This document shows positions 1-56,688 of a DNA stretch of 60,777 nucleotides, in pieces. The DNA is from an uncultured Gammaproteobacteria bacterium. Lineage in GTDB: Bacteria; Patescibacteriota; Microgenomatia; 2-02-FULL-39-11. Made by a program: the position numbers and the translations under genes. The stretch lies in NCBI GenBank assembly GCA_964446235.1, contig CAYUNW010000001.1:103837-164613 (forward strand). Reading direction: 5' to 3'. Under the pieces are notes generated by a model. The model did no database searches. It had not been told where the DNA came from and saw only the letters and a list, made by a program, of their open reading frames with translations. Within the stretch, counting starts at the first letter, position 1; each line of letters begins with the position of its first letter.

Positions 1-1608
1 TGCCTGCAAAAGATTTATAACTTTCTCAGATCTGATACCAAAACCCTGGCAAAGTTTTTGGAAATTAGGATTTTTCAGTCTAGTTTCAGCATAATTTCCC
101 TTATAAAACAACTCCTGCCACTGTCTGACCATACCTAGAAAGTTATTATTCAACAAAGCGATTTTTACATCGACATTTTCCTGTACAATAGTAGCCAATT
201 CCTGCAAAGTCATTTGAATACCTCCATCACCTATTACTATCCAAACTTCTCTTTTCGGATCAGCTACTTTTGCACCTATTCCGGCAGGCAAAGCAAATCC
301 CATTGTTCCTAATCCACCTGATGTTATATGTGAATTATATTTATTATATTCATAGTATCTTGCAGCATACATCTGATTTTGTCCTACATCAGCCACAACT
401 GTCGCCTTACCATCAGTTTCCTTTGAAATTAATCTTATTACTTGAGCAGATTTCAGTTTTTTTGAATGTAATTCCGGAAGCCAAACCTTTTCTTTTTCCT
501 CCAATTTCCATTTCTTAAATTCAGTTAACCATTGAAAATGCTTTTTTTTATAAATTAAAGGTAATAACTGAATCATAATTTCTTTTGCATCAGCCACGAT
601 TCCCAAGTAAGGTTTAATGTTTTTGCCGATTTCAGAAGGATCTATATCAATATGTATGATTTTTGCCTGCCGGGCATATTTATTAACAGCGCTAGTTACT
701 CTGTCAGAAAACCTCATACCTAAAACCAGAATCACATCAGCCTCGTTTGTGGCTCTATTGGCTGCTACATTACCATGCATACCGGGCATGCCCATAAACA
801 ATCTGTGATTTGAAGGTATAGCTGATAATCCTAAATGTGTGAGAATTATTGGTGCATCCATTTTTTCAGCAACTTTTAAAAGATTTTTACCGTCTCCAGA
901 CAACATAACTCCATGTCCGGCTAAAATTAACGGTTTATGTGCTCCATTTAGTAAATCTGCTACTTTCTTCAATTCATCTTTTGAAGGTTTCGTTTTAATT
1001 TCTTCTGAATTACGATAACCTAATTTTTTTGGGTATTTAAAAATCGCAGAACCTGTTTGTGCGTCTTTGGTAATATCAATCAAAACCGGACCAGGCCGAC
1101 CGCTTGATGCAATATGAAATGCTTCTCTGATAGTATAGGCAATATCTTGTGTGCAAGTTACTTGATAATTACGCTTGGTAATGGGTGCAGTAATACCCAC
1201 CACATCCGCTTCCTGAAAAGCATCTCTTCCCAAATACATCGAAGGCACCTGTCCGGTGATACAAACCATAGGGATAGAATCCATCATGGCATCTGCCAAA
1301 CCTGTCACCAAATTGGTCGCACCTGGTCCAGAAGTAGCAAAACAAACACCAGGTCTTCCTGTAATCCAAGCATATCCCTCTGCAGCATGCGCTGCTCCCT
1401 GCTCGTGACGGACTAAAATATGTCTTAATTGAGGAAATTTATAGATAGCATCATAAATTGGGATATTTGCCCCACCAGGATATCCAAAAATCACGCTTAT
1501 CCCTTCGCGACATAAACATTCGCAGAGGATATCTGCTCCTTGAACTTTTTCCCCTTCTTTCAGTTTACTGGTAAATTTATTGATTTTTGATTGTTTAGTT
1601 AGTTTCAT
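1..1608 (-). CDS. ilvB: Acetolactate synthase large subunit (partial; 3' end runs off the window)
   Basis: Not in the ORF track because no stop lies in the window. Hand translation from ATG 1608 gives MKLTKQ...GADILCECL...VIFGYPGGA...[14 protein letters not shown]...[13 protein letters not shown]...[10 protein letters not shown]...[12 protein letters not shown]...[12 protein letters not shown]. The start overlaps the ilvD TGA (ATGA). Confidence 0.96.
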
Positions 1609-3365
1609 AAGGTATTATCCATAACAGCACCGTAATTTGCGCTCAAAACATGCTGGCTGTAACGGCCAAGCCAACCGTTTTTAACTTTTGATTCAAATAC
1701 CGGCAGTTTTTTCAAACGATCATTCATTTCTTTTAGACGGATTTTTAAATTTACTAATTTTTTTGTAGTATCAATCTCTATCAAATCTCCATCATAAATA
1801 ACAGCTATCGGACCACCTACAGCTGCCTCCGGAGAAATATGCCCCACACAAAGCCCTCGAGTACCACCTGAAAATCTCCCGTCTGTAATTAATGCCGCTT
1901 TTATCCCCAAACCTTTGATTGCTGAAGTTGGTGAAAGCATCTCCTGCATCCCCGGCCCTCCACGCGGACCTTCATACCTTATCACTACCACATCACCATC
2001 CTTAATTTTCTTTTTTAATATTGCATCTAAAGCCTCTTCTTGAGAGTTGTAACATTTAGCCCGACCGGTAAAACTCATCATATCTTTATCCACTCCCGCC
2101 GTCTTCACTACGGCTCCATCCGGAGCCAAATTGCCAAAAAGGACTGTTAAACCGCCTTTTTGGGAAAAAGCATTTTTCCCGAAGCGAATAACATCATTAT
2201 CAGGATCTGGAGCTTCTTTAATATAATCGCCAAGTTTCCCTATGCAAGTCTTGGCGCCAGTATCAAGTAGAGATTTACTGTGCCTGACAACAGCTTTCAA
2301 AATTGCAGCAACTCCCCCTACTCGATGAACATCTTCTATATGAACTTCCGGACGAGATGGTGAAACTCTACAGACATTGGGAGTTTGATCTGAGATTTCT
2401 GCGATACGTTCTAATCTATAGGGAATTCCAGCCTCATAAGCCAAAGCCAGTGTATGCAAAACCGTATTGGTTGATCCACCCATGGCTAAATCCAAACAAA
2501 AAGCGTTGTCAATAGAACTTTTTTTAACAATATCTTTCGGTCTAACTTTATTTTTGACTAATTTGACTATCGTCTCAGCAGCTTTTTGGGTCATAGCCAG
2601 TCTTTGAGGATTGACTTTCCAGATACCCTTCTTTTTATCAACCCATATAGCTGCAGGAACTGTCCCGTTTCCGGGTAAAGCCAATCCTATAGCTTCTGCT
2701 AAACAATTCATCGAATTTGCCGTAAACATCCCAGCGCAACTTCCGCAGGTCTGACAAGCACCTTGGGCAAGTTTCATCAAGCTATTTTCGCTTATCTTAC
2801 CGGCTACATATTGACCAACTCCTTCAAATACGGATATCAGATCTGTATTGTTTTGCCCGGCCAACATTGGTCCGCCACTTAAATAAAGCGCCGGAATATT
2901 CAGTCTCACCATAGCATTAAGCATACCCGGTACAATCTTGTCACAGTTACCAATCCCAATCCAAGCATCCGGTGGATGAGCCCCTATTATCGTTTCTATC
3001 TGATCGGTAATCAATTCTCTTGATGGAAGAGAATATTTCATACCAAAATGTCCCATGGCTATCCCATCATCTACCGCTCCACCGATATTGCAATACCAAA
3101 CATTTACCTTAAGTTTTTTCAGTTCTTCCACCAGCTTTGCTCCTAAAACTTGAAGATGAATATGTCCAGGTATATGAGTAGTATAAGAATTAACGACTGT
3201 AATGAATGGCTTTTTTCTATCAGATATTTTTTTTATTACTCCGGCAGCTATCATCAAAGATGCATTGGGTATCATATGATAACCTTCTGTGACAATCCTG
3301 CTGCCTTTTTTTTGAATTTGAGCAATACCTTGATTGATTGCTTGTCTTTTTCTGATCTTTTTCAT
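1605..3365 (-). CDS. ilvD: Dihydroxy-acid dehydratase
   Basis: [61 protein letters not shown] and GHISPEA motifs. Confidence 0.97.
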
Positions 3366-3383
3366 ATTTTTTGCTCTTAATTA

Positions 3384-3412
3384 CAAAAAAACCTCTCTTT
3401 TTTTGAGAGGTT
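3384..3412 (-). terminator. Intrinsic terminator of the ilv leader (attenuator)
   Basis: Minus-strand RNA AACCUCUC-AAAAAAA-GAGAGGUU followed by UUUUUG, about 20 nt before the ilvD ATG. Confidence 0.9.
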
Positions 3413-3435
3413 GCTTTTGTGATTTACAAAATTTT

Positions 3436-3516
3436 TCAGGCTTTTTTCCAAGCAAACCTCTGTCCTGAAATCAGGACAATTATGGAAATTATTATGCTTG
3501 GAAATAAACTATTCAT
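3436..3516 (-). CDS. ilv operon leader peptide, 26 aa MNSLFPSIIISIIVLISGQRFAWKKA
   Basis: Hand-translated ATG 3516 to TGA 3436. Codons 8-16 are IIISIIVLI. It overlaps protector and antiterminator helices upstream of a terminator. Confidence 0.85.
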   Translation of the reverse strand: MNSLFPSIIISIIVLISGQRFAWKKA

Positions 3517-3528
3517 ATTGATTTTTCA

Positions 3529-3557
3529 TTTATATCAAAATAGGTTTTAATTGTCAA
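3529..3557 (-). promoter_or_regulatory. Sigma70-type promoter of the ilv leader
   Basis: TTGACA (3557-3552), 17 nt, TATAAA (3534-3529), with TGn extension. Confidence 0.75.
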
Positions 3558-3567
3558 TATAAGGCGT

Positions 3568-5094
3568 TTAAATATTTTCTTCCCTTACTCTATATTGTAA
3601 TGCCTCGCTTATATGATATGGCGAAATTTCTATAGATTTTTCTAAATCTGCAATAGTTCTGGAAATTTTTAAAACTCGATAATAACTTCTTGCAGATAAA
3701 TTTAAACTTACAACTGCATTTCGAATAAGACTTAGACATTCGGAAGACAGTTTTATATATTCTTTTACGGCTCTTGAAGTTAAATCAGAATTACACGTGT
3801 AAATGGTTTTCGAATATCTTTGTGTTTGCAAATCTCTTGCTCTTTGGATCCTGATTTTGATAATTTTAGATTCTTCACTCTTCTGATCAACTGTCAATCT
3901 TTCTACCCTCACAGGAGGTAAATTAATATGTAAATCAATCCTGTCTAAAATCGGTCCAGAAATTCTTTTCTGATATTGAAGAATTTTTCCAGGTAAACAA
4001 TTGCATTTTCTGACTTCATCACCATAAAATCCACAGGGACAGGGATTTGCAGCAGCAACCAATATAAATTTTGCTGGATAACTAAGAGTTCCGGCTGCTC
4101 TTGATATTGTAACAATTCCATCCTCCATTGGCTGCCTCAAAGATTCTAAAACATGACGCGGATATTCAGGAAACTCGTCCAAAAATAACACTCCTCGATG
4201 AGCTAAAGATATTTCTCCCGGCATAGGTTTTGCACCACCACCAATCAAGCCGATTCTGCTAGTGGTATGATGTGGAGCTCTAAACGGTCTTGTTTTTATT
4301 ATCGCCTCACCAATAGGAATATTACCCGTAATAGAATATATTTTTGTTACTTCTAATGCTTCTGACTCTGTCAGATCTGGAAGTATTCCGGGTAACGCTC
4401 TTGCCAACATCGTTTTCCCCGCTCCAGGTACCCCTTTTATAAAAAGGTTGTGACCTCCAGCCGCTGATATTTCAAATACTCTTTTTGCTTGCTCTTGTCC
4501 TTTAATATCGGAGAAATCAAATTCGCTATTTATATCAATTTTCAATTTGGTAAATGGTGTATAAGGATATTTTTCTATTGTTTTAATACCAGCAAAATGT
4601 TTATAAATTGTAATTAAGCTCTCAACAGGATAAACATCAACACCTTTAATTACGGATGCTTCCTGAGCATTTGTGCTGGGTAAAAATATTGATTTGTATC
4701 CTTTATTTTTTGCCAAAATCATCATCGGTAAGATTCCTTTTGTGTGTCTTAAAGTACCGTCAAGTGATAATTCTCCTAAAACCAAAATTTTGTCGGAATA
4801 TGCTTTTAATTGTCCGGAGGCTATCAAAATACCTAAAGCTATAGGCAAATCATATGATGGTCCTTCTTTTGGTATATCTGCAGGAGCTAAATTTACTGTA
4901 ATCCTGTGTGTAGGAAACTCAGCTCCTGAATTTTTAATTGCTGCTCTAACTCTTTCTTTTGATTCCTCTATTGATTTTGATGGCAACCCAACAATGGTAA
5001 ATGAAGGTAAGCTTTTCAAGTAAATATCAACTTCTACAGTGATTGTAATAGGGTCTAAACCGACAGTTGCTCCGGACAGAACTTTAGCCAGCAT
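3568..5094 (-). CDS. comM: YifB/ComM family Mg-chelatase-like AAA+ ATPase
   Basis: FTIVGLP..SIEESKERVRAAIKNSG, VNLAPAD..KEG..YDLPIA, GVPGAGKT, PFRAPHHT, GEISLAHRGVLFLDE, NPCPCG, SGPILDRID, LSARSY.RVLK. Confidence 0.93.
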   Translation of the reverse strand: MLAKVLSGATVGLDPITITVEVDIYLKSLPSFTIVGLPSKSIEESKERVRAAIKNSGAEFPTHRITVNLAPADIPKEGPSYDLPIALGILIASGQLKAYSDKILVLGELSLDGTLRHTKGILPMMILAKNKGYKSIFLPSTNAQEASVIKGVDVYPVESLITIYKHFAGIKTIEKYPYTPFTKLKIDINSEFDFSDIKGQEQAKRVFEISAAGGHNLFIKGVPGAGKTMLARALPGILPDLTESEALEVTKIYSITGNIPIGEAIIKTRPFRAPHHTTSRIGLIGGGAKPMPGEISLAHRGVLFLDEFPEYPRHVLESLRQPMEDGIVTISRAAGTLSYPAKFILVAAANPCPCGFYGDEVRKCNCLPGKILQYQKRISGPILDRIDLHINLPPVRVERLTVDQKSEESKIIKIRIQRARDLQTQRYSKTIYTCNSDLTSRAVKEYIKLSSECLSLIRNAVVSLNLSARSYYRVLKISRTIADLEKSIEISPYHISEALQYRVREENI

Positions 5095-7856: not shown

Positions 7857-9866
7857 ATGGATTATATCGGACCGATTCATGGTTCTTCATTAATTCCTCC
7901 TTTCTTTTTGTCGATTTTTTTTCTAATTGTTGTTTTTATAAATACTTTTTTAATCATTTTTATAAAAAAGAAGTATTTTAATTTAAACTATCTGATAAAA
8001 ATATCCATCCTTTTTAAATCTAATATATTTGCTTTCTCCGGCTTGCTTATGGTATTAGCTTTGATTGCTTTACACATATTACTACCTCAACCTCAAGCCA
8101 TAATATCATTCACAGAAAACATACAAAACAACCCTTCCGGCCCAATTATCATTGAATTTACAAAACCCGTGATGAGAAAAAATATAATAAAATCCATATT
8201 TCCGGAAATTCCAGGAAGATGGGTATTTGCCAGTCCAATTTATTCAACTCATCTTTATACGAAACTTTATTTCTTTCCTCAAAATACTTTGAAATCTGAT
8301 ACTGTATATACAATTAAACTTGAGGGAGTAAAAAACTTTCTGCAAACCGGAGACGGTATGGATTATAATCTTACTTATAAAACTTCTGATTCTGCAAAAA
8401 TATCAAAAATCAATTTCGTAAATAATTTAAATACTAAAAATGATATTTCTGAACTGGAAGTATATTTTGATAAACCAATAGAACCCACTGAAAACTTTTA
8501 TTTTTCTTTTTTTCCTGATATAAATTATGAAAAAATTTATAACACTGCAAATAATTCTTATTCACTAATCTTAAAACAACCTCTGACGGAAAATATTCCA
8601 TATTTGTTTAAAGCATATAAAGAAAACTTGACACTTGACACGCAAACGACTGAAGTCGTAGCTAGATCTAATGCTCAATTAGTATACAAAAGCTATCTTA
8701 ATTCTGACGTACTAGGTCTAACATCTTTTTCACCGGATACTGACATTGCTCTGTTACGTATTCCAATAGTCATCACTTTCGCTGATCCAATGGAGAAAAC
8801 GTCAGTAGAAAATAATTTTTCTATATCTCCTTTTACCGATGGCAAAATTGAATGGAAAGATGATTTTATTATGGTATTTACTCCTTTAAAATATCTGCCT
8901 GATACCAAATACACTGTATTCATTTCAAAAGAAGCGCTATTACAAAACGGAAAAAAGTTAAACGAAGATATTAATCAATCATTTACCACTATAGGAAAAG
9001 TCAGAATTTTAGATACTTTTCCTAAAAATGGCTGGACGGAAGTCTCAGTAGACAACAATATCAAAATTAGTTTCAATCAACCTGTTGATAAACAATCTGC
9101 AGAAAATCATTTTTCTATTTCTCCTTTAGTTTCTGGAAAATTTACTTGGGAAGACTATACACTGATTTTCAATCCTGATGATTATTTATCATATGAAACC
9201 GAATATCAAATTAAAATCTCAAAAAATATCCCTAGTTTAATTGGATTAGATTCGGATGAAGATTATAATTTCAATTTTACTACTCAAAATTCTACTACCA
9301 ATTTAAAAGTACCACAACTTTTACAAAAATATGCTTTATCATGTGAAATTGCAGCTTTACGGATGGTATTGGCATACAGAGGCGTTAGTGTAGATGAAGA
9401 TTTTCTTCTTTCAAAAATCGGTACAGATAATACCCCAAAAACCAATAATACATGGGGCAATCCATATATGGCATTTGTCGGTAACGTCAGAGGTAGACAA
9501 ATGCATACAGGATACGGAGTATATTGGGAACCTATAGCCAATGTTGCAAATTTATTCCGTTATGCAAAGTCATTCCAAAATTGGTCGCTTACTCAAATTA
9601 CTGAATCTTTGGAAAAAGGCCATCCTGTAATAGTCTGGGTAAATGTACAAAAAGGATCCCCTACAAATTGGTATACTACTGGAGGCGATAATATTTATGC
9701 TGTAACTGACGAACATGCAGTGGTAGTTACCGGTTTTGTAGGAACAGCAAAAAATCCTTCATATTTAATTATCAATGATCCTCTTTCAGGACAAGTCTAT
9801 TGGGATAGAAATTTATTCGAAAAAAAATGGAGCATGTTTCATCAAAGCGGGGTAATCGTATATTAA
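7857..9866 (+). CDS. Membrane-anchored protein with SbsA-type Ig-like repeats and a C-terminal C39-like peptidase domain
   Basis: N-terminal TM helices. Repeated I.I.F..P......Y.V.I motifs. QKYALSCEIAA (Q,C), DEHAVVVTG (H), INDP (D). Confidence 0.8.
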   Translation: MDYIGPIHGSSLIPPFFLSIFFLIVVFINTFLIIFIKKKYFNLNYLIKISILFKSNIFAFSGLLMVLALIALHILLPQPQAIISFTENIQNNPSGPIIIEFTKPVMRKNIIKSIFPEIPGRWVFASPIYSTHLYTKLYFFPQNTLKSDTVYTIKLEGVKNFLQTGDGMDYNLTYKTSDSAKISKINFVNNLNTKNDISELEVYFDKPIEPTENFYFSFFPDINYEKIYNTANNSYSLILKQPLTENIPYLFKAYKENLTLDTQTTEVVARSNAQLVYKSYLNSDVLGLTSFSPDTDIALLRIPIVITFADPMEKTSVENNFSISPFTDGKIEWKDDFIMVFTPLKYLPDTKYTVFISKEALLQNGKKLNEDINQSFTTIGKVRILDTFPKNGWTEVSVDNNIKISFNQPVDKQSAENHFSISPLVSGKFTWEDYTLIFNPDDYLSYETEYQIKISKNIPSLIGLDSDEDYNFNFTTQNSTTNLKVPQLLQKYALSCEIAALRMVLAYRGVSVDEDFLLSKIGTDNTPKTNNTWGNPYMAFVGNVRGRQMHTGYGVYWEPIANVANLFRYAKSFQNWSLTQITESLEKGHPVIVWVNVQKGSPTNWYTTGGDNIYAVTDEHAVVVTGFVGTAKNPSYLIINDPLSGQVYWDRNLFEKKWSMFHQSGVIVY

Positions 9867-52974: not shown

Positions 52975-55900
52975 CTAACTATTAATAATTGCTCTTTCTT
53001 TTGATACCGGAATGAGCCGACCGATTATAACATTTTCTTTCAATCCTAACAACAAATCTACTCTACCTGTCAAGGATGCGTCTGTTAATACATTTGTTGT
53101 TTCCTGAAATGATGCAGCTGATAACCAGGAATCAGTATATAACGATGCTCTGGTAATTCCCAGTATCACCACTTGAGCAGTGGCAGGCTCTCCACCTTCA
53201 GATAATATTTTTGCATTCTCAGTTTCAAATCTTCTTCTATCAACAAGCTCACCGGGTAATAATACGGTGTCTCCTGCCGTTTCAATTCTAACTTTATCAC
53301 TCATTTTCCTGATAATTACTTCAAAATGCTTATCATTTATCGGAATTCCTTGAGATTTATAGACTTTTTGAATTTCTTCAAGTAAGTACTTCTGAGCGCC
53401 TAACAATCCTCTTATTTGCAAAACTTGTCTTATATCTAAAGATCCGTGGGTAAGCGGGTCTCCTGCCGAAATTAAATCTCCAGTTTTTACGTTTAATTCT
53501 GACGTTTTAGTAACAAAATATGTTCTTTCTTCTACCGGTTTAATTCCTATACTTTTAATGGTTATATCATATCCTGTTTCAACCTCATCAACTGTTACTT
53601 TTCCTGAAATTTCCGCTAATGGTGAAAATACTTTTGGAGTTCTTGCTTCAACTAATTCTTCAACTCTAGGTAATCCCTGTGTAACGTCTAAACCTACAAT
53701 ACCCCCCGCATGTCTAACCCGCATAGTCAATTGAGTACCAGGTTCACCGATTGATTGTGCTGCTAAAATCCCCACGGGAGTACCAATTTCTACAAATTGT
53801 TTTGAAGATAAATCTAATCCATAACAGGAAGCACAAAGTCCTGTTCTTAATTCACATGTTAATGGAGAACGTACTATCACTTCTTTAACTTTACTTAGTC
53901 CAGGTAATTTATTCTCAGTTATCAGTTCTCCCTGTTTAAACAAAACCTTTTTCCCTTCGATCACATCTTTTATCAACACCCGGCCCATGATTTTTACTTC
54001 AAATTCCTCGTTCTTATTTTCCTCACGCACGATAGTAATACCTTCTTTAGTACCGCAATCATCGGTTCGTATAATTGCATCATGTGCTACATCAATCAAT
54101 CTTCTTGTAAGATACCCTGCGTCTGCAGTTTTTAAAGCCGAATCTGTTAATCCTTTTCTTGATCCTCTTGTTGAAGTTACATATTCAAAAATACTTAAAC
54201 CTTCACGATAATTTGATTTTGTGGGTAATTCTACTATTTTCCCCAATGGATCAACTACTAAACCTTTTATGGCGGATAATTGTTTTAATTGATCTTTAGA
54301 TGCTCTAGCGCCTCCGGAATTAATAATTATTTTTACCGGGTTATCATCAGTCATTGCATTCCATGTATCATCTGCAATTTTTTCTGTTACATCTATCCAA
54401 ATCTCATTAGCTAATCTACGTCTTTCTTCGTTGGTTATCAATCCTTGCAGATAATTATTTTCAATTTCTTTTATCTTTTCTTCAGCATTTTTTACTATAT
54501 CATTCTTCTCTTTGATAATAATATTATCGAACACCGACAATGATAATCCCCCTGCTATAGTTGCTCCAAAAAATCCAAAGTCTTTGAATCTATCAATTAA
54601 ATCAGCCACTTCCTCTTTAGGATACATATCATAGGCTGTCTTAATAATTGATTTTATTTTGGATGCTTTAATTGATTCATTGATGTATCTTAATTCTTTC
54701 GGTAATATTTCATTAAATAATATCCTACCAATACTTGTGCGGATAATTTTCCCGTCGATTTTTACCAAAACTGGGCTTCTTAAATCTTTTTTATCTGCCT
54801 GATATGCTAATATTGCTTCCTGTTCATCTGCAAAAATCGGTAATTCTTTATCATCAAAATTATCACTATCAGATCTTAATGATGTTAGATAATAACATCC
54901 CAAAGCCATTTCTTTATTTGGTATCGTAATCGGTGTACCATCGGCTGGTTTTAATAAATTCGACAATGGTAACATTAGCTCGCTTGATTCATTCTGGGAC
55001 TGTTTGGACAATGGAACATGCACAGCCATTTGGTCTCCGTCAAAATCCGCGTTATAACCTGCGCAAACACATGGGTGAATTCTGATTGCCGACCCTTCAA
55101 TCAATATCGGATAAAATGCTTGTATGCCTAATTTATGTAAAGTAGGAGCTCTGTTTAACAAAACAGGATGATTTTTGGTAATCTCTTCTAATATATCAAA
55201 TACTTCTGCTTCTCTCAGTTCTAAAACATTTTTAGCACTCTTTACATTCGGAGCGATCCCCCGAATAATCAACTCTCTTAGTACAAACGGTTTGAATAAT
55301 TCAAGCGCCATCTCTTTCGGCAAACCACACTGTGACAAACTTAATTCAGGTCCCACAACTATTACTGATCTACCTGAATAATCAACTCTTTTACCTAAAA
55401 GATTTTGCCTAAATCTCCCTTGTTTACCTCTCAACATGTCTGATAATGACCTTAACACCTGTGTACTTGCCGTTCGAGAAGTTCTTCTTTGACTTGCATC
55501 GATAAGGGAATCAACAGCTTCCTGTAGCATTCTTTTTTCATTTCTCAAAATAATCTCTGGAGCTCCTAATTCTATCAAATGTTTAAGTCTATTATTGCGA
55601 TTTATAACTCTTCTGTATAAATCATTCAAATCTGATGTAGCAAATTTACCACCAGTTAACTGAACCATCGGCCTCAAATCAGGCGGAATAACCGGTAAAA
55701 CATTCATAATCGTCCAACCAGGATTTATACTGGCAGTTTTTATACCTTCCAAAACATGTAATCTTTTGGTAATTTTTATCTTTTTCTGACCGGATGAGAC
55801 AATTAATTCTTTTCTCAAATCTGCAGTAATTTTAGGGATATCAAAGTTTTTTAAAATTTCATTAATTGCTTCTGCTCCCATACCAACTTTTACATAAGAA

Positions 55901-56688
55901 GAAACACCATACTCTCTTAATTTTAGATATTCATCTTCTGATATAACTGAAAGTGTCTTAATCCTTTTTACCAAATCTGAAATCGTATTAAATATTTCTT
56001 TTGCAGTTTCGTTCTCGCTTTCTTTATCCTCGTTTAAGCTCTTTATTTGTTGTTTCATTTTATATTGCAACTCGTCTACAGCTAAATCTTTTGCTTCTTT
56101 GTTTTTTACTTTTTTATCCAAATCCTTCTCAGCTTTATGAAATTCCTGTTCAATCTCTTTTTCTTTTGATAAATATATTTTATCCCTTTCAACTCTCCTC
56201 TTTTCAAAATTTACTTCTAATGATGAAAGTACTTTCTTTTGTTCTTCTTTATCCACGTTTAAAACTAAATATGAAGAATAGTAAATTATATTTTCCAATG
56301 CTTTTGGGGGAATATCCATAATTAAAGATAGTTTTGATGGACTACCTTTAAAAAACCACACATGAACTACGGGGGCTGCAAGTTTAATATGACCCATTCT
56401 CTCTCTACGTACCTTACTCTGTGTTACCTCTACTCCGCATTTATCACAAATTATTCCTCGGTATCGGATTCTTTTATATTTACCACAGTAACATTCCCAA
56501 TCTTTTGTAGGACCAAAAATTTTCTCGTCAAATAAACCGTCTTTTTCCGGTTTGAGAGTACGATAATTTATTGTTTCAGGTTTGGTAATTTCACCATATG
56601 ACCAAGATAATACATCTTCGCTTGATGCAAGCGTGACCAGTAAAGATGAAAAATCTACAATATTTTGAAAACTACCTTTTTTATCCAT
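52975..56688 (-). CDS. rpoC: RNA polymerase beta' subunit
   Basis: C.CGKY, RERMGHI.LA, GKRVDYSGRSVI, NADFDGDQM, ASFQETT.VL. Confidence 0.99.
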   Translation of the reverse strand: MDKKGSFQNIVDFSSLLVTLASSEDVLSWSYGEITKPETINYRTLKPEKDGLFDEKIFGPTKDWECYCGKYKRIRYRGIICDKCGVEVTQSKVRRERMGHIKLAAPVVHVWFFKGSPSKLSLIMDIPPKALENIIYYSSYLVLNVDKEEQKKVLSSLEVNFEKRRVERDKIYLSKEKEIEQEFHKAEKDLDKKVKNKEAKDLAVDELQYKMKQQIKSLNEDKESENETAKEIFNTISDLVKRIKTLSVISEDEYLKLREYGVSSYVKVGMGAEAINEILKNFDIPKITADLRKELIVSSGQKKIKITKRLHVLEGIKTASINPGWTIMNVLPVIPPDLRPMVQLTGGKFATSDLNDLYRRVINRNNRLKHLIELGAPEIILRNEKRMLQEAVDSLIDASQRRTSRTASTQVLRSLSDMLRGKQGRFRQNLLGKRVDYSGRSVIVVGPELSLSQCGLPKEMALELFKPFVLRELIIRGIAPNVKSAKNVLELREAEVFDILEEITKNHPVLLNRAPTLHKLGIQAFYPILIEGSAIRIHPCVCAGYNADFDGDQMAVHVPLSKQSQNESSELMLPLSNLLKPADGTPITIPNKEMALGCYYLTSLRSDSDNFDDKELPIFADEQEAILAYQADKKDLRSPVLVKIDGKIIRTSIGRILFNEILPKELRYINESIKASKIKSIIKTAYDMYPKEEVADLIDRFKDFGFFGATIAGGLSLSVFDNIIIKEKNDIVKNAEEKIKEIENNYLQGLITNEERRRLANEIWIDVTEKIADDTWNAMTDDNPVKIIINSGGARASKDQLKQLSAIKGLVVDPLGKIVELPTKSNYREGLSIFEYVTSTRGSRKGLTDSALKTADAGYLTRRLIDVAHDAIIRTDDCGTKEGITIVREENKNEEFEVKIMGRVLIKDVIEGKKVLFKQGELITENKLPGLSKVKEVIVRSPLTCELRTGLCASCYGLDLSSKQFVEIGTPVGILAAQSIGEPGTQLTMRVRHAGGIVGLDVTQGLPRVEELVEARTPKVFSPLAEISGKVTVDEVETGYDITIKSIGIKPVEERTYFVTKTSELNVKTGDLISAGDPLTHGSLDIRQVLQIRGLLGAQKYLLEEIQKVYKSQGIPINDKHFEVIIRKMSDKVRIETAGDTVLLPGELVDRRRFETENAKILSEGGEPATAQVVILGITRASLYTDSWLSAASFQETTNVLTDASLTGRVDLLLGLKENVIIGRLIPVSKERAIINS

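Follow-up and report, generated by a model that had tools for sequence, protein, structure and literature searches.

Ribosome-mediated transcription attenuation of amino-acid operons is known from the enterobacterial ilvGMEDA and ilvBN leaders, and from the trp, his, leu, thr and pheA leaders, in which a promoter is followed by a short ORF with a run of codons for the products of the pathway, four RNA segments that can form alternative 1:2, 2:3 and 3:4 pairings, and an intrinsic terminator just before the first biosynthetic gene. Control of ilvGMEDA is multivalent, and in trp the antiterminator can be less stable than the terminator and act kinetically. In Staphylococcus aureus, a 26-aa leader peptide with an III-LL run, followed by a terminator, precedes an operon whose first gene is ilvD; this leader is conserved within its genus, and mutations in it de-repress the operon, which is also controlled by CodY (PMC5794164). 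In actinobacteria, short ORFs with I/V/L runs overlapping or preceding terminators upstream of ilv genes have been predicted by comparative genomics, and attenuation by uORF translation is supported by reporter assays for the Corynebacterium ilvB-II uORF (PMC10272879), whereas mutation of the control codons of a similar-looking ilvB leader in Streptomyces coelicolor had no effect (PMC1262725). Corynebacterium leader peptides may be leaderless, although our literature search did not confirm this. Finally, mycobacterial poly-cysteine sORFs act as leaderless first cistrons in which ribosome stalling in an amino-acid run remodels the downstream RNA structure and raises operon expression (bioRxiv 10.1101/834739).

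Here, we describe a conserved, unannotated leader of this general design just upstream of the branched-chain amino-acid operon of an uncultured CPR/Patescibacteria bacterium. The window, meaning the whole stretch of 60,777 nt that we analysed, covers positions 103,837 to 164,613 of contig CAYUNW010000001.1 (assembly GCA_964446235.1). A first-pass annotation, made from the sequence alone, had listed a promoter, an Ile/Val/Leu-rich sORF, a protector fold, an antiterminator and a terminator between 3557 and 3385 on the minus strand, and each of these elements proved to be present where it had been placed. The features are as follows.

3552..3557, minus strand: -35 hexamer TTGACA of the leader promoter.
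3529..3537, minus strand: extended -10 element TGaTATAAA (TATAAA at 3534-3529), 17 nt after the -35, the spacer ending in TGa.
3436..3516, minus strand: leader sORF of 26 codons plus stop (ATG at 3516, TGA at 3438-3436), MNSLFPSIIISIIVLISGQRFAWKKA, without a Shine-Dalgarno sequence; the ATG lies 12 nt after the -10, giving a predicted 5' UTR of about 5-6 nt.
3469..3495, minus strand: putative control codons 8-16, IIISIIVLI (6 Ile, 1 Val, 1 Leu, 1 Ser).
3485..3509, minus strand: segment 1, the 5' strand of the protector hairpin (GUUU 3509-3506, UUUCCAAGCA 3504-3495, AAUUUC 3490-3485).
3461..3478, minus strand: inner hairpin UGUCCUG (3478-3472), AUUU, CAGGACA (3467-3461) within codons 13-19, which we infer may act as an RNA polymerase pause hairpin.
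3440..3460, minus strand: segment 2, the 3' strand of the protector (UGCUUGGAAA 3454-3445 pairs with UUUCCAAGCA); its 5' part, GAGGUUUGCU 3460-3451, is also the upstream strand of the antiterminator.
3405..3415, minus strand: segment 3, in which AGCAACCUC 3415-3407 is complementary to segment 2 (antiterminator) and AACCUCUC 3412-3405 is the 5' arm of the terminator, followed by a loop of 7 A.
3385..3397, minus strand: segment 4, the terminator 3' arm GAGAGGUU (3397-3390) and U-tract to 3385.
1605..3365, minus strand: ilvD (dihydroxy-acid dehydratase, 586 aa), the first structural gene, 24 nt after the terminator stem.
1..1608, minus strand: ilvB (acetolactate synthase large subunit), whose start overlaps the ilvD stop codon and which runs off the window end.
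3568..5094, minus strand: upstream neighbour, a yifB/comM-like Mg-chelatase-family ATPase, which is not part of the element.

The downstream genes form a real ilv operon. IlvD carries the Pfam domains ILVD_EDD_N and ILV_EDD_C and scores 660 bits against the NCBIfam TIGR00110 equivalog cut-off of 618, and on two public contigs that are 100% identical in the leader (L081 and L082, which give no comparative information) the operon continues with ilvB, ilvC and a fusion of PALP (ThrC-like) and LeuA_dimer domains. In the relative L086, the operon reads ilvD-ilvB-ilvN-ilvC-(ThrC-like+LeuA domain)-RidA-ilvE. The best named RpoC hits are Candidatus Gottesmanbacteria at 72-76% identity, placing the organism among Gottesmanbacteria-like CPR bacteria. 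No gene is called between yifB and ilvD on L081 and L082, and none of 8 of the leader peptides tested occurs in a collection of 15 billion proteins, confirming that the sORF had been unannotated.

Several of these features exceed chance expectation within the window. The 165-nt leader folds at -46.1 kcal/mol, compared with -24.2 +/- 3.7 for 200 dinucleotide shuffles (z = -6.0), and the protector and inner hairpin pairs are those of the MFE structure. Only 3 of 338 ATG-initiated ORFs of 15-60 aa in all six frames of the window reach 8 I/L/V in 9 residues, and only 2 reach 6 Ile in 9. The 1:2 duplex is -20.7 kcal/mol (z = -5.4 against shuffles), the duplex between the sORF (3460-3451) and the terminator arm (3415-3407), at -14 kcal/mol, is matched or beaten by 8 of 500 shuffles, and the local terminator hairpin (8-bp stem, 7-nt loop and 7 U at 3412-3385) is -12.0 kcal/mol. 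By contrast, the promoter pattern alone is not enriched, with 9 matches in the window against 7.5 expected, and a consensus promoter scan did not list this site because the last base of its -10 is A rather than T; support for the promoter comes from its conservation in relatives. Together with the fact that about 1% of sORFs in this AT-rich DNA are equally I/L/V-rich, the promoter count might suggest a chance coincidence of an intergenic ORF, the terminator of the upstream gene and a promoter-like string. However, the fold score and the conservation of the whole arrangement, with covariation, in 10 diverged lineages with different upstream genes effectively refute this possibility.

The decisive evidence is comparative. 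The first-pass annotation had proposed a conserved I/L/V-rich sORF with covariation in relatives as a test, and its outcome is positive: nine further distinct leaders of the same design precede ilvD-first operons in relatives with about 75% IlvD identity. The ten leaders (the window and the relatives L083, L086, L087, L088, L089, L091, L101, L105 and L106) have IlvD proteins that are only about 75-80% identical, one relative's RpoC is 74% identical to the window's, and their upstream neighbours differ and include divergently transcribed genes. All ten keep a perfect TTGACA, a 17-18 nt spacer and a -10 box (TAAGAT, TAAAAT, TATATT, TAATAT or TATAGT in relatives), followed after 8-13 nt by ATG or GTG, and none has a Shine-Dalgarno sequence. 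The homologous sORFs in the 9 other lineages span 26-33 codons. A pattern scan of metagenomes returned 14 hits, of which four are real (two new members and two copies of L083) and ten are chance matches. Among species-representative genomes, the 80 loci with the closest IlvD mostly have ilvA-ilvD or other arrangements and none carries this leader, although our detection of operon starts there was crude and limited to 4 kb of flank, such that other kinds of leader may have been missed.

The I/L/V core shows a codon-like substitution pattern. In the 11-codon core, variable columns by codon position are 7, 3 and 10, the only indel is 3 nt, and 96 of 110 residues are I, L or V, the remainder being S, P, T or N, with no F, M, A, G or W. 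The 3' part of the sORF instead shows no codon periodicity (7, 7, 7), and in L105 its conserved Trp becomes Leu while the RNA complementarity becomes perfect. These data bear on the possibility that the sORF encodes a functional small hydrophobic membrane peptide with its own promoter and terminator, the ilv operon merely reading through and the composition reflecting a transmembrane helix. In favor of this view, the peptide has a hydrophobic stretch of 12-19 residues followed by a polar or charged tail, it is conserved in 10 lineages, including a G-Q-G-x-A-W-E motif, and I/L/V-rich sORFs do arise by chance. However, the third positions of the C-terminal motif are conserved, pointing to constraint at the RNA level, the N- and C-terminal tails are not conserved, segment 2 within the ORF is complementary to the terminator arm with compensatory changes, and the sORF is always linked to an ilvD-first operon whatever the upstream neighbour. 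Features expected of small hydrophobic or type I toxin-like peptide genes, namely selection on the peptide independently of the downstream gene, often with an antisense RNA, are thus not observed, with antisense promoters covered only by the consensus scan. We consider this explanation unlikely, although the two roles are not mutually exclusive.

Conservation extends to both mutually exclusive RNA helices. A full-length MAFFT alignment put the terminator arms out of register, and an intermediate version mis-registered three sequences; we therefore used spacer-trimmed sequences anchored on the Trp codon, CCTC and GAGG, and the covariation tests rest on 9 related sequences in this hand-anchored alignment. 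The antiterminator has 83.8% of cells paired, against 34-60% when partners are slid, and a covariation score of 0.189 against 0.104 for shuffles (0 of 500 reach it), with two compensatory pairs, CG/GC (4 and 4 sequences) and GC/UA. Protector, inner hairpin and terminator together have 86.8% paired, again reached by 0 of 500 shuffles; terminator pairs covary, and a hairpin at the place of the inner hairpin has 86% of cells paired in relatives. Duplexes between the sORF and segment 3 score z = -1.9 to -4.4 against shuffles, and in the window segment 2 has moved 9 nt but remains complementary to its own diverged terminator arm. The 1:2 protector, however, is no better than shuffles in the six relatives tested (z about 0).

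We next asked how a ribosome would influence these structures. Equilibrium folding of the complete leader with ribosome masks shows no switch for the window or L089, where the terminator wins at every ribosome position with P = 0.95 or higher. Footprint-masked folding of nascent RNA, which is still an equilibrium rather than a kinetic model, gives the expected change in all 9 leaders: with the A site on core I/L/V codons segment 3 is paired upstream with P = 0.56-1.0, and with the ribosome over the last eight sense codons P = 0.02-0.55. In the same model, however, only stalls at codons 3-12 work in the window, stalls at codons 13-16 do not free segment 2, a ribosome parked on the window's stop codon leaves GAGGUU exposed, and in L086, L088, L091 and L106 the footprint of a ribosome on the stop codon leaves segment 2 free to pair with segment 3. 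With a stall at Ile9/10, the antiterminator is the global MFE in L083, L087 and L091 and lies within 0.3-0.6 kcal/mol of it in L086 and L088. In the window, the terminator-containing fold is 6.9 and 8.2 kcal/mol more stable than the best fold without the terminator when the ribosome stalls at Ile9 and Ile10, respectively, and therefore antitermination there would have to be kinetic, or this copy is tight or leaky. Four relatives fold into the antiterminator when untranslated.

The lack of a Shine-Dalgarno sequence, together with a start codon 8-13 nt after the -10 box, implies a 5' UTR of 1-6 nt that is neither strictly leaderless nor SD-led, with initiation efficiency correspondingly uncertain. 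Only 15 of 63 window genes have an SD-like motif, and many have TATAAT 6-8 nt before the ATG, such that leaderless-type starts appear to be common in this genome; the codon-position pattern of the core also supports translation, which nonetheless remains inferred from sequence alone. An alternative is a terminator/antiterminator switch operated by something other than a translating ribosome, such as an RNA-binding protein, an uncharged tRNA or a small molecule, with an incidental ORF. In favor of this view, the strong, conserved alternative structures exist independently of any proof of translation, the sORF lacks a Shine-Dalgarno sequence, and the S. coelicolor ilvB leader peptide proved dispensable for regulation (PMC1262725). 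Against this view, a search of Rfam leader and cis-regulatory families (including Thr_leader, Phe_leader, Leu/His/Trp leaders, ilvB motifs, T-box and riboswitches) found only tRNA-Pro in the window at gathering score, the best hits in 3300-3620 at E up to 10 were Phe_leader at 20.3 bits and Thr_leader at 16.8 bits against thresholds of 55, and six homologous loci gave no hits at gathering score. Moreover, a non-translated RNA would not require the fixed distance between promoter and start codon, the open frame, the single 3-nt indel or the codon-position pattern preserved in 10 lineages, and the spacer between the stop codon and the terminator is unconserved and AT-rich, with no obvious ligand-binding fold. 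We therefore regard this explanation as improbable.

A further possibility, which we consider very unlikely, is that control acts mainly on translation of ilvD, through coupling, re-initiation or unmasking of its start region, as in the mycobacterial leaderless poly-Cys sORFs (bioRxiv 10.1101/834739). The sORF is leaderless-like, and the ilvD start lies within 10-28 nt of the hairpin in most members and usually has no SD. However, the hairpin is a canonical intrinsic terminator, with a GC-rich 6-9 bp stem and a 5-7 nt loop, followed immediately by 5-7 U in eight of the nine leaders that reach the terminator and by an interrupted CUUUUC tail in L105. In addition, the ilvD start codon itself is not inside the hairpin, and three members have 75-90 nt of extra sequence between the terminator and ilvD, indicating that proximity to the start is not conserved.

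Taken together, our data are best explained, with good though not complete confidence, by a ribosome-mediated transcription attenuator of the ilvD-ilvB-ilvC operon that would sense mainly isoleucine, and also valine and leucine, through the speed at which a ribosome translates the I/L/V run. In this view, transcription starts at a sigma-70-type promoter only a few nucleotides before the sORF, which is probably translated from a leaderless or nearly leaderless mRNA. When charged tRNA-Ile/Val/Leu is plentiful, the ribosome would run through the sORF and cover segment 2 (3460-3440), leaving segment 3 free to pair with segment 4, such that the AACCUCUC/GAGAGGUU hairpin and U-tract form and RNA polymerase stops 20-25 nt before ilvD. 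When the ribosome stalls in the I/L/V run (the model responds at codons 8-12 in the window), it would hold segment 1 and the inner hairpin open, allowing segment 2 to pair with segment 3 as it emerges, delaying or blocking the terminator so that the operon is transcribed. An untranslated leader in the window would fold into the strong 1:2 protector and terminate. Since the terminator stem ends 24 nt before the ATG in the window and 10-28 nt before it in six of the eight relatives with a complete leader, there is no room for a separate ilvD promoter, and ilvD expression must therefore read through the terminator. What the analysis establishes are the sequence elements, their conservation and covariation and the in silico switching behaviour, while the transcription start, translation of the sORF, transcription-translation coupling and the response to amino-acid supply are inferred.

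The interpretation offered by the first-pass annotation, that attenuation with the logic of the enterobacterial ilvGMEDA/ilvBN leaders operates in a Patescibacterium, is supported, with corrections concerning the absence of a Shine-Dalgarno sequence, the weakness of the window's own antiterminator and the inferred status of regulation by amino-acid supply. Its suggestion that ATA codons sharpen sensing is not supported: three, not four, of the six Ile codons are ATA, ATA makes up 36% of Ile codons in this genome, and the relatives use mostly ATT and ATC.

CPR/Patescibacteria are usually described as reduced, largely auxotrophic symbionts, and almost nothing is known about how they regulate genes. 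If our reading is correct, a lineage carrying a complete ilv operon under what looks like a textbook attenuator would experience and respond to fluctuating Ile/Val/Leu supply and would not simply depend on a host for these amino acids, its transcription and translation would be coupled closely enough for attenuation to work, and translation could start on mRNAs with almost no 5' leader and no Shine-Dalgarno sequence. More tentatively, Gottesmanbacteria-type CPR bacteria might make their own branched-chain amino acids and regulate their synthesis with a leaderless leader peptide, a 70S-type initiation at the very 5' end of the nascent RNA being coupled tightly enough to RNA polymerase to decide termination about 130 nt later; in part of the family the untranslated default state would be read-through, giving a two-state ribosome occlusion attenuator without a protector. 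If true, this would be, as far as we could find, the first evidence for functional transcription-translation coupling and amino-acid-responsive gene control in this ultra-small, supposedly host-dependent lineage, and a handle for predicting its physiology from sequence. We found no paper combining leader peptides, attenuation and Patescibacteria/CPR in the literature searched, which does not show that no report exists. While the mechanism is familiar, the leader is a new RNA/peptide family, absent from Rfam 15 and from protein collections, that could be modelled, searched for across metagenomes and tested in vitro without cultivating the organism.

Compared with the enterobacterial leaders, the element shares the order of promoter, codon run, alternative RNA segments and terminator, and its mixed Ile/Val/Leu codons resemble the multivalent control of ilvGMEDA, but there is no sequence or covariance-model similarity, the sORF starts a few nucleotides from the predicted transcript 5' end without a Shine-Dalgarno sequence, the host is a CPR bacterium, and in four relatives the preference of untranslated RNA for the antiterminator leaves no superattenuation state. 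The S. aureus leader also has 26 aa and precedes an ilvD-first operon, yet it has a ribosome-binding site 9 nt before its start, a terminator 52 nt after the stop codon and a proposed antiterminator that sequesters the poly-U tail (PMC5794164), whereas here the antiterminator takes the 5' arm of the terminator, there is no SD and no homology is evident. The actinobacterial leaders differ in first gene (ilvB), sequence family and phylum, and the S. coelicolor result is a warning that resemblance is not proof (PMC1262725, PMC10272879). Finally, the element resembles the mycobacterial poly-cysteine attenuators in its leaderless-like short ORF, but its output structure is a hairpin plus U-tract, a canonical intrinsic terminator, and not an SD-sequestering helix, and the amino acids that would be sensed are Ile, Val and Leu (bioRxiv 10.1101/834739).

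On the minus strand, the intergenic region between a yifB/comM-like ATPase gene (5094..3568) and the next gene (3365..1605) carries the following features, all read on that strand:

3557-3552, TTGACA
a 17-nt spacer ending in TGa
3534-3529, TATAAA
12 nt
3516, ATG, the start of a 26-codon ORF, MNSLFPSIIISIIVLISGQRFAWKKA
3438-3436, TGA, the stop codon
a 23-nt A/U-rich spacer
3412-3405, AACCUCUC
seven A
3397-3390, GAGAGGUU
U's to 3385
20 nt further on, the ATG of the downstream gene

We found that every coordinate given for these elements in the first-pass annotation is correct, and its observation is confirmed. The 165-nt leader folds at -46.1 kcal/mol, against -24.2 +/- 3.7 for dinucleotide shuffles (z = -6.0), and the fold contains the long hairpin that the annotation had called the protector as well as a separate terminator. 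Because the terminator stem is flanked by an A-rich run upstream and a U-tract downstream (3385-3420, both strands), a terminator scan also calls it on the plus strand, although no convergent gene needs it there.

The downstream protein has both IlvD/Edd Pfam domains and passes the NCBIfam ilvD equivalog cut-off, with 660 bits against 618. Directly after it, overlapping its stop codon, the acetolactate synthase large subunit runs off the window end. Two public contigs carrying the identical sequence show the operon ilvD, ilvB, ilvC and a PALP+LeuA_dimer fusion, with no gene called in the leader; the leader on these contigs is 100% identical to that of the window and therefore gives no comparative information. 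Comparison of window 1605-1 and L081 4758-7640 (one of these identical contigs) with L083 10633-11133 and L086 13608-14096 (contigs of relatives) showed that the window's lineage has no ilvN (acetolactate synthase small subunit) between ilvB and ilvC, where the gap is 76 nt, while the relatives all have a 160-166 aa ilvN there. The ilv operon of this clade also has no canonical ilvA. In its place, downstream of the window's ilvC and outside the window (L081 7580-7761+, L083 12216-14093, L086 15334-17226), is a protein of about 600-635 aa whose N-terminal part passes the NCBIfam threonine synthase model (TIGR00260, 240 bits against a cut-off of 167) and whose C-terminal part is a LeuA-type regulatory (LeuA_dimer) domain; in L086 it is followed by RidA and ilvE. 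It is possible that this protein provides an unusual, feedback-regulated route to 2-oxobutanoate. The 1237-aa ORF at 52975..56688 is RpoC, and its best named relatives, at 72-76% identity, are Candidatus Gottesmanbacteria and other Patescibacteria, so the earlier statement that this is a Patescibacterium holds. Elsewhere in the window, a 669-aa protein with two bacterial Ig-like (Big_5) domains and a C-terminal Peptidase_C39-like domain lies next to enolase (7857-9866, plus strand) and may be a secreted or surface protease.

Taken as a single sequence, the arrangement is only partly distinguishable from chance. Among 338 ATG-initiated ORFs of 15-60 aa in all six frames of the window, 3 reach 8 I/L/V in 9 residues and 2 reach 6 Ile in 9, and the composition alone is therefore about a 1% event. 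The promoter pattern TTGACA-N16-18-TANNNW occurs 9 times in the window against 7.5 expected, so on its own it carries no weight. The fold z-score and the position of the sORF between a promoter-like site and a terminator in front of ilvD are suggestive, but the case rests on comparison with relatives.

The closest IlvD anywhere in a database of 5.8 billion clusters is only 76% identical. Among 80 species-representative genomes, most relatives have ilvA-ilvD or other arrangements, and none has this leader. In contrast, relatives whose operon begins with ilvD do carry a homologous leader. Look-ups of the encoding contigs yielded L083/L084, L086, L087, L088, L089, L105 and L106, and a pattern scan of metagenomes yielded L091 and L101, which together with the window make ten distinct sequences. 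All ten have a perfect TTGACA, then 17-18 nt, then a -10 box, which in the relatives is TAAGAT, TAAAAT, TATATT, TAATAT or TATAGT; the start codon follows 8-13 nt later and is ATG in seven members and GTG in three. The upstream neighbours differ, and in L083 and L105 they are transcribed divergently; in L105 the divergent neighbour is a HEPN and nucleotidyltransferase (NTP_transf_2) gene pair, a typical toxin-antitoxin-like module (2027-2754, minus strand). The promoter, sORF and terminator therefore travel with ilvD as one unit, and the hairpin is not the terminator of an upstream gene. Three members (L087 about 3870-3995, L088 about 2465-2595, L106 678-755) carry an extra 75-90 nt between the terminator and ilvD, with two conserved hairpins, the second of which is ATCC(G/T)CCGAAGCTTTA(A)GCGAAGG..GGAT. 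No Rfam match was found for this insertion, which could be a second regulatory element or a small inserted repeat.

The peptides are 26-33 aa long and share the core S-I-I-I-L-S/P-I-I-V-L-V-I-G-Q-G-x-A-W-E, and none of the eight that we looked up is present in a collection of about 15 billion predicted proteins. In the 11-codon I/L/V core, the numbers of variable alignment columns at codon positions 1, 2 and 3 are 7, 3 and 10, the minimum substitution counts are 9, 3 and 17, and the only indel is 3 nt, which is evidence that this part is read as codons. Of 110 core residues, 96 are I, L or V and the rest are S, P, T or N, whereas F, M, A, G and W, which a generic membrane helix would tolerate, never occur there. 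The 3' third of the sORF (G-Q-G-x-A-W-E), on the other hand, shows no periodicity (7, 7, 7) and its third positions are conserved, which points to constraint as RNA. L105 illustrates this, since its Trp codon becomes Leu (UUG), yet UCUUUGGAGGG remains perfectly complementary to the terminator region CCCUCCAAAGA. The Leu, Val and Ser/Pro codons chosen in the core (CUC, CUU, CUG, GUC, UCN, CCN; window 3469-3495 and the homologous cores) supply the C residues of segment 1 for pairing with the G-rich segment 2. The Leu and Val codons among them are rare to uncommon in this genome (CUC 1%, CUG 5%, CUU 16% and GUC 8% of their families) and are used instead of the common UUA, GUU and GUA; they might also slow decoding. 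The suggestion in the first-pass annotation that ATA codons could sharpen sensing is not supported: three of the six Ile codons are ATA, ATA accounts for 36% of Ile codons in 22 window genes, and the relatives use almost only ATT and ATC in the run.

We next examined whether the leaders encode alternative RNA structures. In eight of the nine relatives segment 2 is UUGGGAGG(C/G) or a one-base variant of it, while L105 has UUUGGAGGG. Segment 3, the terminator's 5' arm plus the first loop bases, is (G/C)CCUC(Y)CAA, and segment 1 is CCUCUCA, CCUUCCA or CCUUUCC, inside the I-L-S/P codons. In a spacer-trimmed alignment of the nine leaders that reach the terminator, anchored by our choice on the Trp codon, on CCTC and on GAGG, the antiterminator (2:3) has 83.8% of cells paired, against 34-60% when partners are slid, and a covariation score of 0.189 against 0.104 for shuffles, with 0 of 500 shuffles reaching the observed score. 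It has two pairs with changes on both sides, namely CG in four sequences against GC in four, and GC against UA. The alternative conformation of protector, inner hairpin and terminator has 86.8% of cells paired, against 44-65% with slid partners, and a covariation score of 0.168 against 0.125, reached by 1 of 500 shuffles; 0 of 500 shuffles reach the observed percentage of paired cells, and compensatory CG/UA changes occur in the terminator stem. These tests involve few, related sequences and structures derived from them, and are supportive rather than conclusive. Alignment column 76 pairs with column 65 in one conformation and with column 94 in the other, and both of its partners change with it (CG/GC with column 65; CG, GU or AU with column 94). 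The window's copy is rearranged: the homologous UGGGAGG has decayed to UGGAAAA, and a new GAGGUU nine nucleotides upstream matches the window's own diverged arm AACCUC. The window's sORF pairs better with its own segment 3 (-13.9 kcal/mol) than with any relative's (-5.7 to -12.9).

To model the effect of a translating ribosome, we folded the nascent RNA, up to but not including segment 4, with a 27-nt footprint masked at each A-site codon. In this equilibrium model, the probability that segment 3 is paired upstream is 0.56-1.0 in all nine leaders with the A site on core I/L/V codons, and 0.02-0.55 with the ribosome over the last eight sense codons. Without a ribosome, it is 0.02-0.06 in the window, L089, L091, L105 and L106, predicting termination, and 0.94-1.0 in L083, L086, L087 and L088, predicting the antiterminator. 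With the full RNA and a stall at Ile9 or Ile10, the antiterminator is the global MFE in L083, L087 and L091, and lies within 0.3-0.6 kcal/mol of the MFE in L086 and L088. In the window and L089, however, the terminator-containing fold is 6.9 and 8.2 kcal/mol more stable than the best fold without the terminator, and at equilibrium the terminator forms at every ribosome position in both. For the window itself, then, read-through must depend on the antiterminator forming first, which is also the situation in the E. coli trp leader, where 3:4 is much more stable than 2:3. This is the weakest point of the model for this particular copy. The model showed three further imperfections: stalls at window codons 13-16 let the outer protector stem re-form around the ribosome, a ribosome on the window's stop codon leaves GAGGUU exposed, and in L086, L088, L091 and L106 the footprint of a ribosome on the stop codon leaves segment 2 free.

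No member has a Shine-Dalgarno sequence, and the -10 box lies 8-13 nt before the start codon, which predicts a 5' UTR of roughly 1-6 nt. This fits the genome, since only 15 of 63 window genes have even a loose SD motif 4-18 nt before the start codon, and many have a TATAAT-like box 6-8 nt before the ATG (examples of such gene starts are 12744(-), 32835(-), 7857(+), 27635(-) and 7771(-)), suggesting that leaderless mRNAs are common in this CPR genome. The leader peptide is thus probably translated from a leaderless or near-leaderless mRNA, an inference from geometry.

Collectively, the interpretation of the first-pass annotation is supported by the comparative test that it had proposed. Our best explanation, which we hold with fairly high confidence, is a ribosome-mediated transcription attenuator sensing Ile, Val and Leu, with a near-leaderless leader peptide, conserved across a Gottesmanbacteria-like clade. 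While the sequence elements, their conservation and the pairing changes among relatives come directly from our analysis, translation of the peptide, its near-leaderless start and any regulation of the operon by amino-acid supply are inferred from sequence and folding alone. The leader family is new, but the kind of regulator to which we assign it is well known, and its interest lies in the host lineage and the predicted leaderless start rather than in a new mechanism.

The element matches no Rfam 15 family, and full-text literature searches found no paper combining leader-peptide attenuation with Patescibacteria or CPR. By predicted function, it is the ilvGMEDA/trp type of attenuator. The nearest described analogue with ilvD as first gene is the 26-aa Ile/Leu-rich attenuator peptide of S. 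aureus, which has an RBS and a different antiterminator (PMC5794164). Further analogues are the actinobacterial ilvB leaders and the Corynebacterium ilvB-II uORF (PMC1262725, PMC10272879); the first of these papers also records that control-codon mutations in the S. coelicolor ilvB leader had no effect, a caution against equating resemblance with function. Leaderless sensory sORFs are known in mycobacteria, but they act on translation of the next gene (10.1101/834739).
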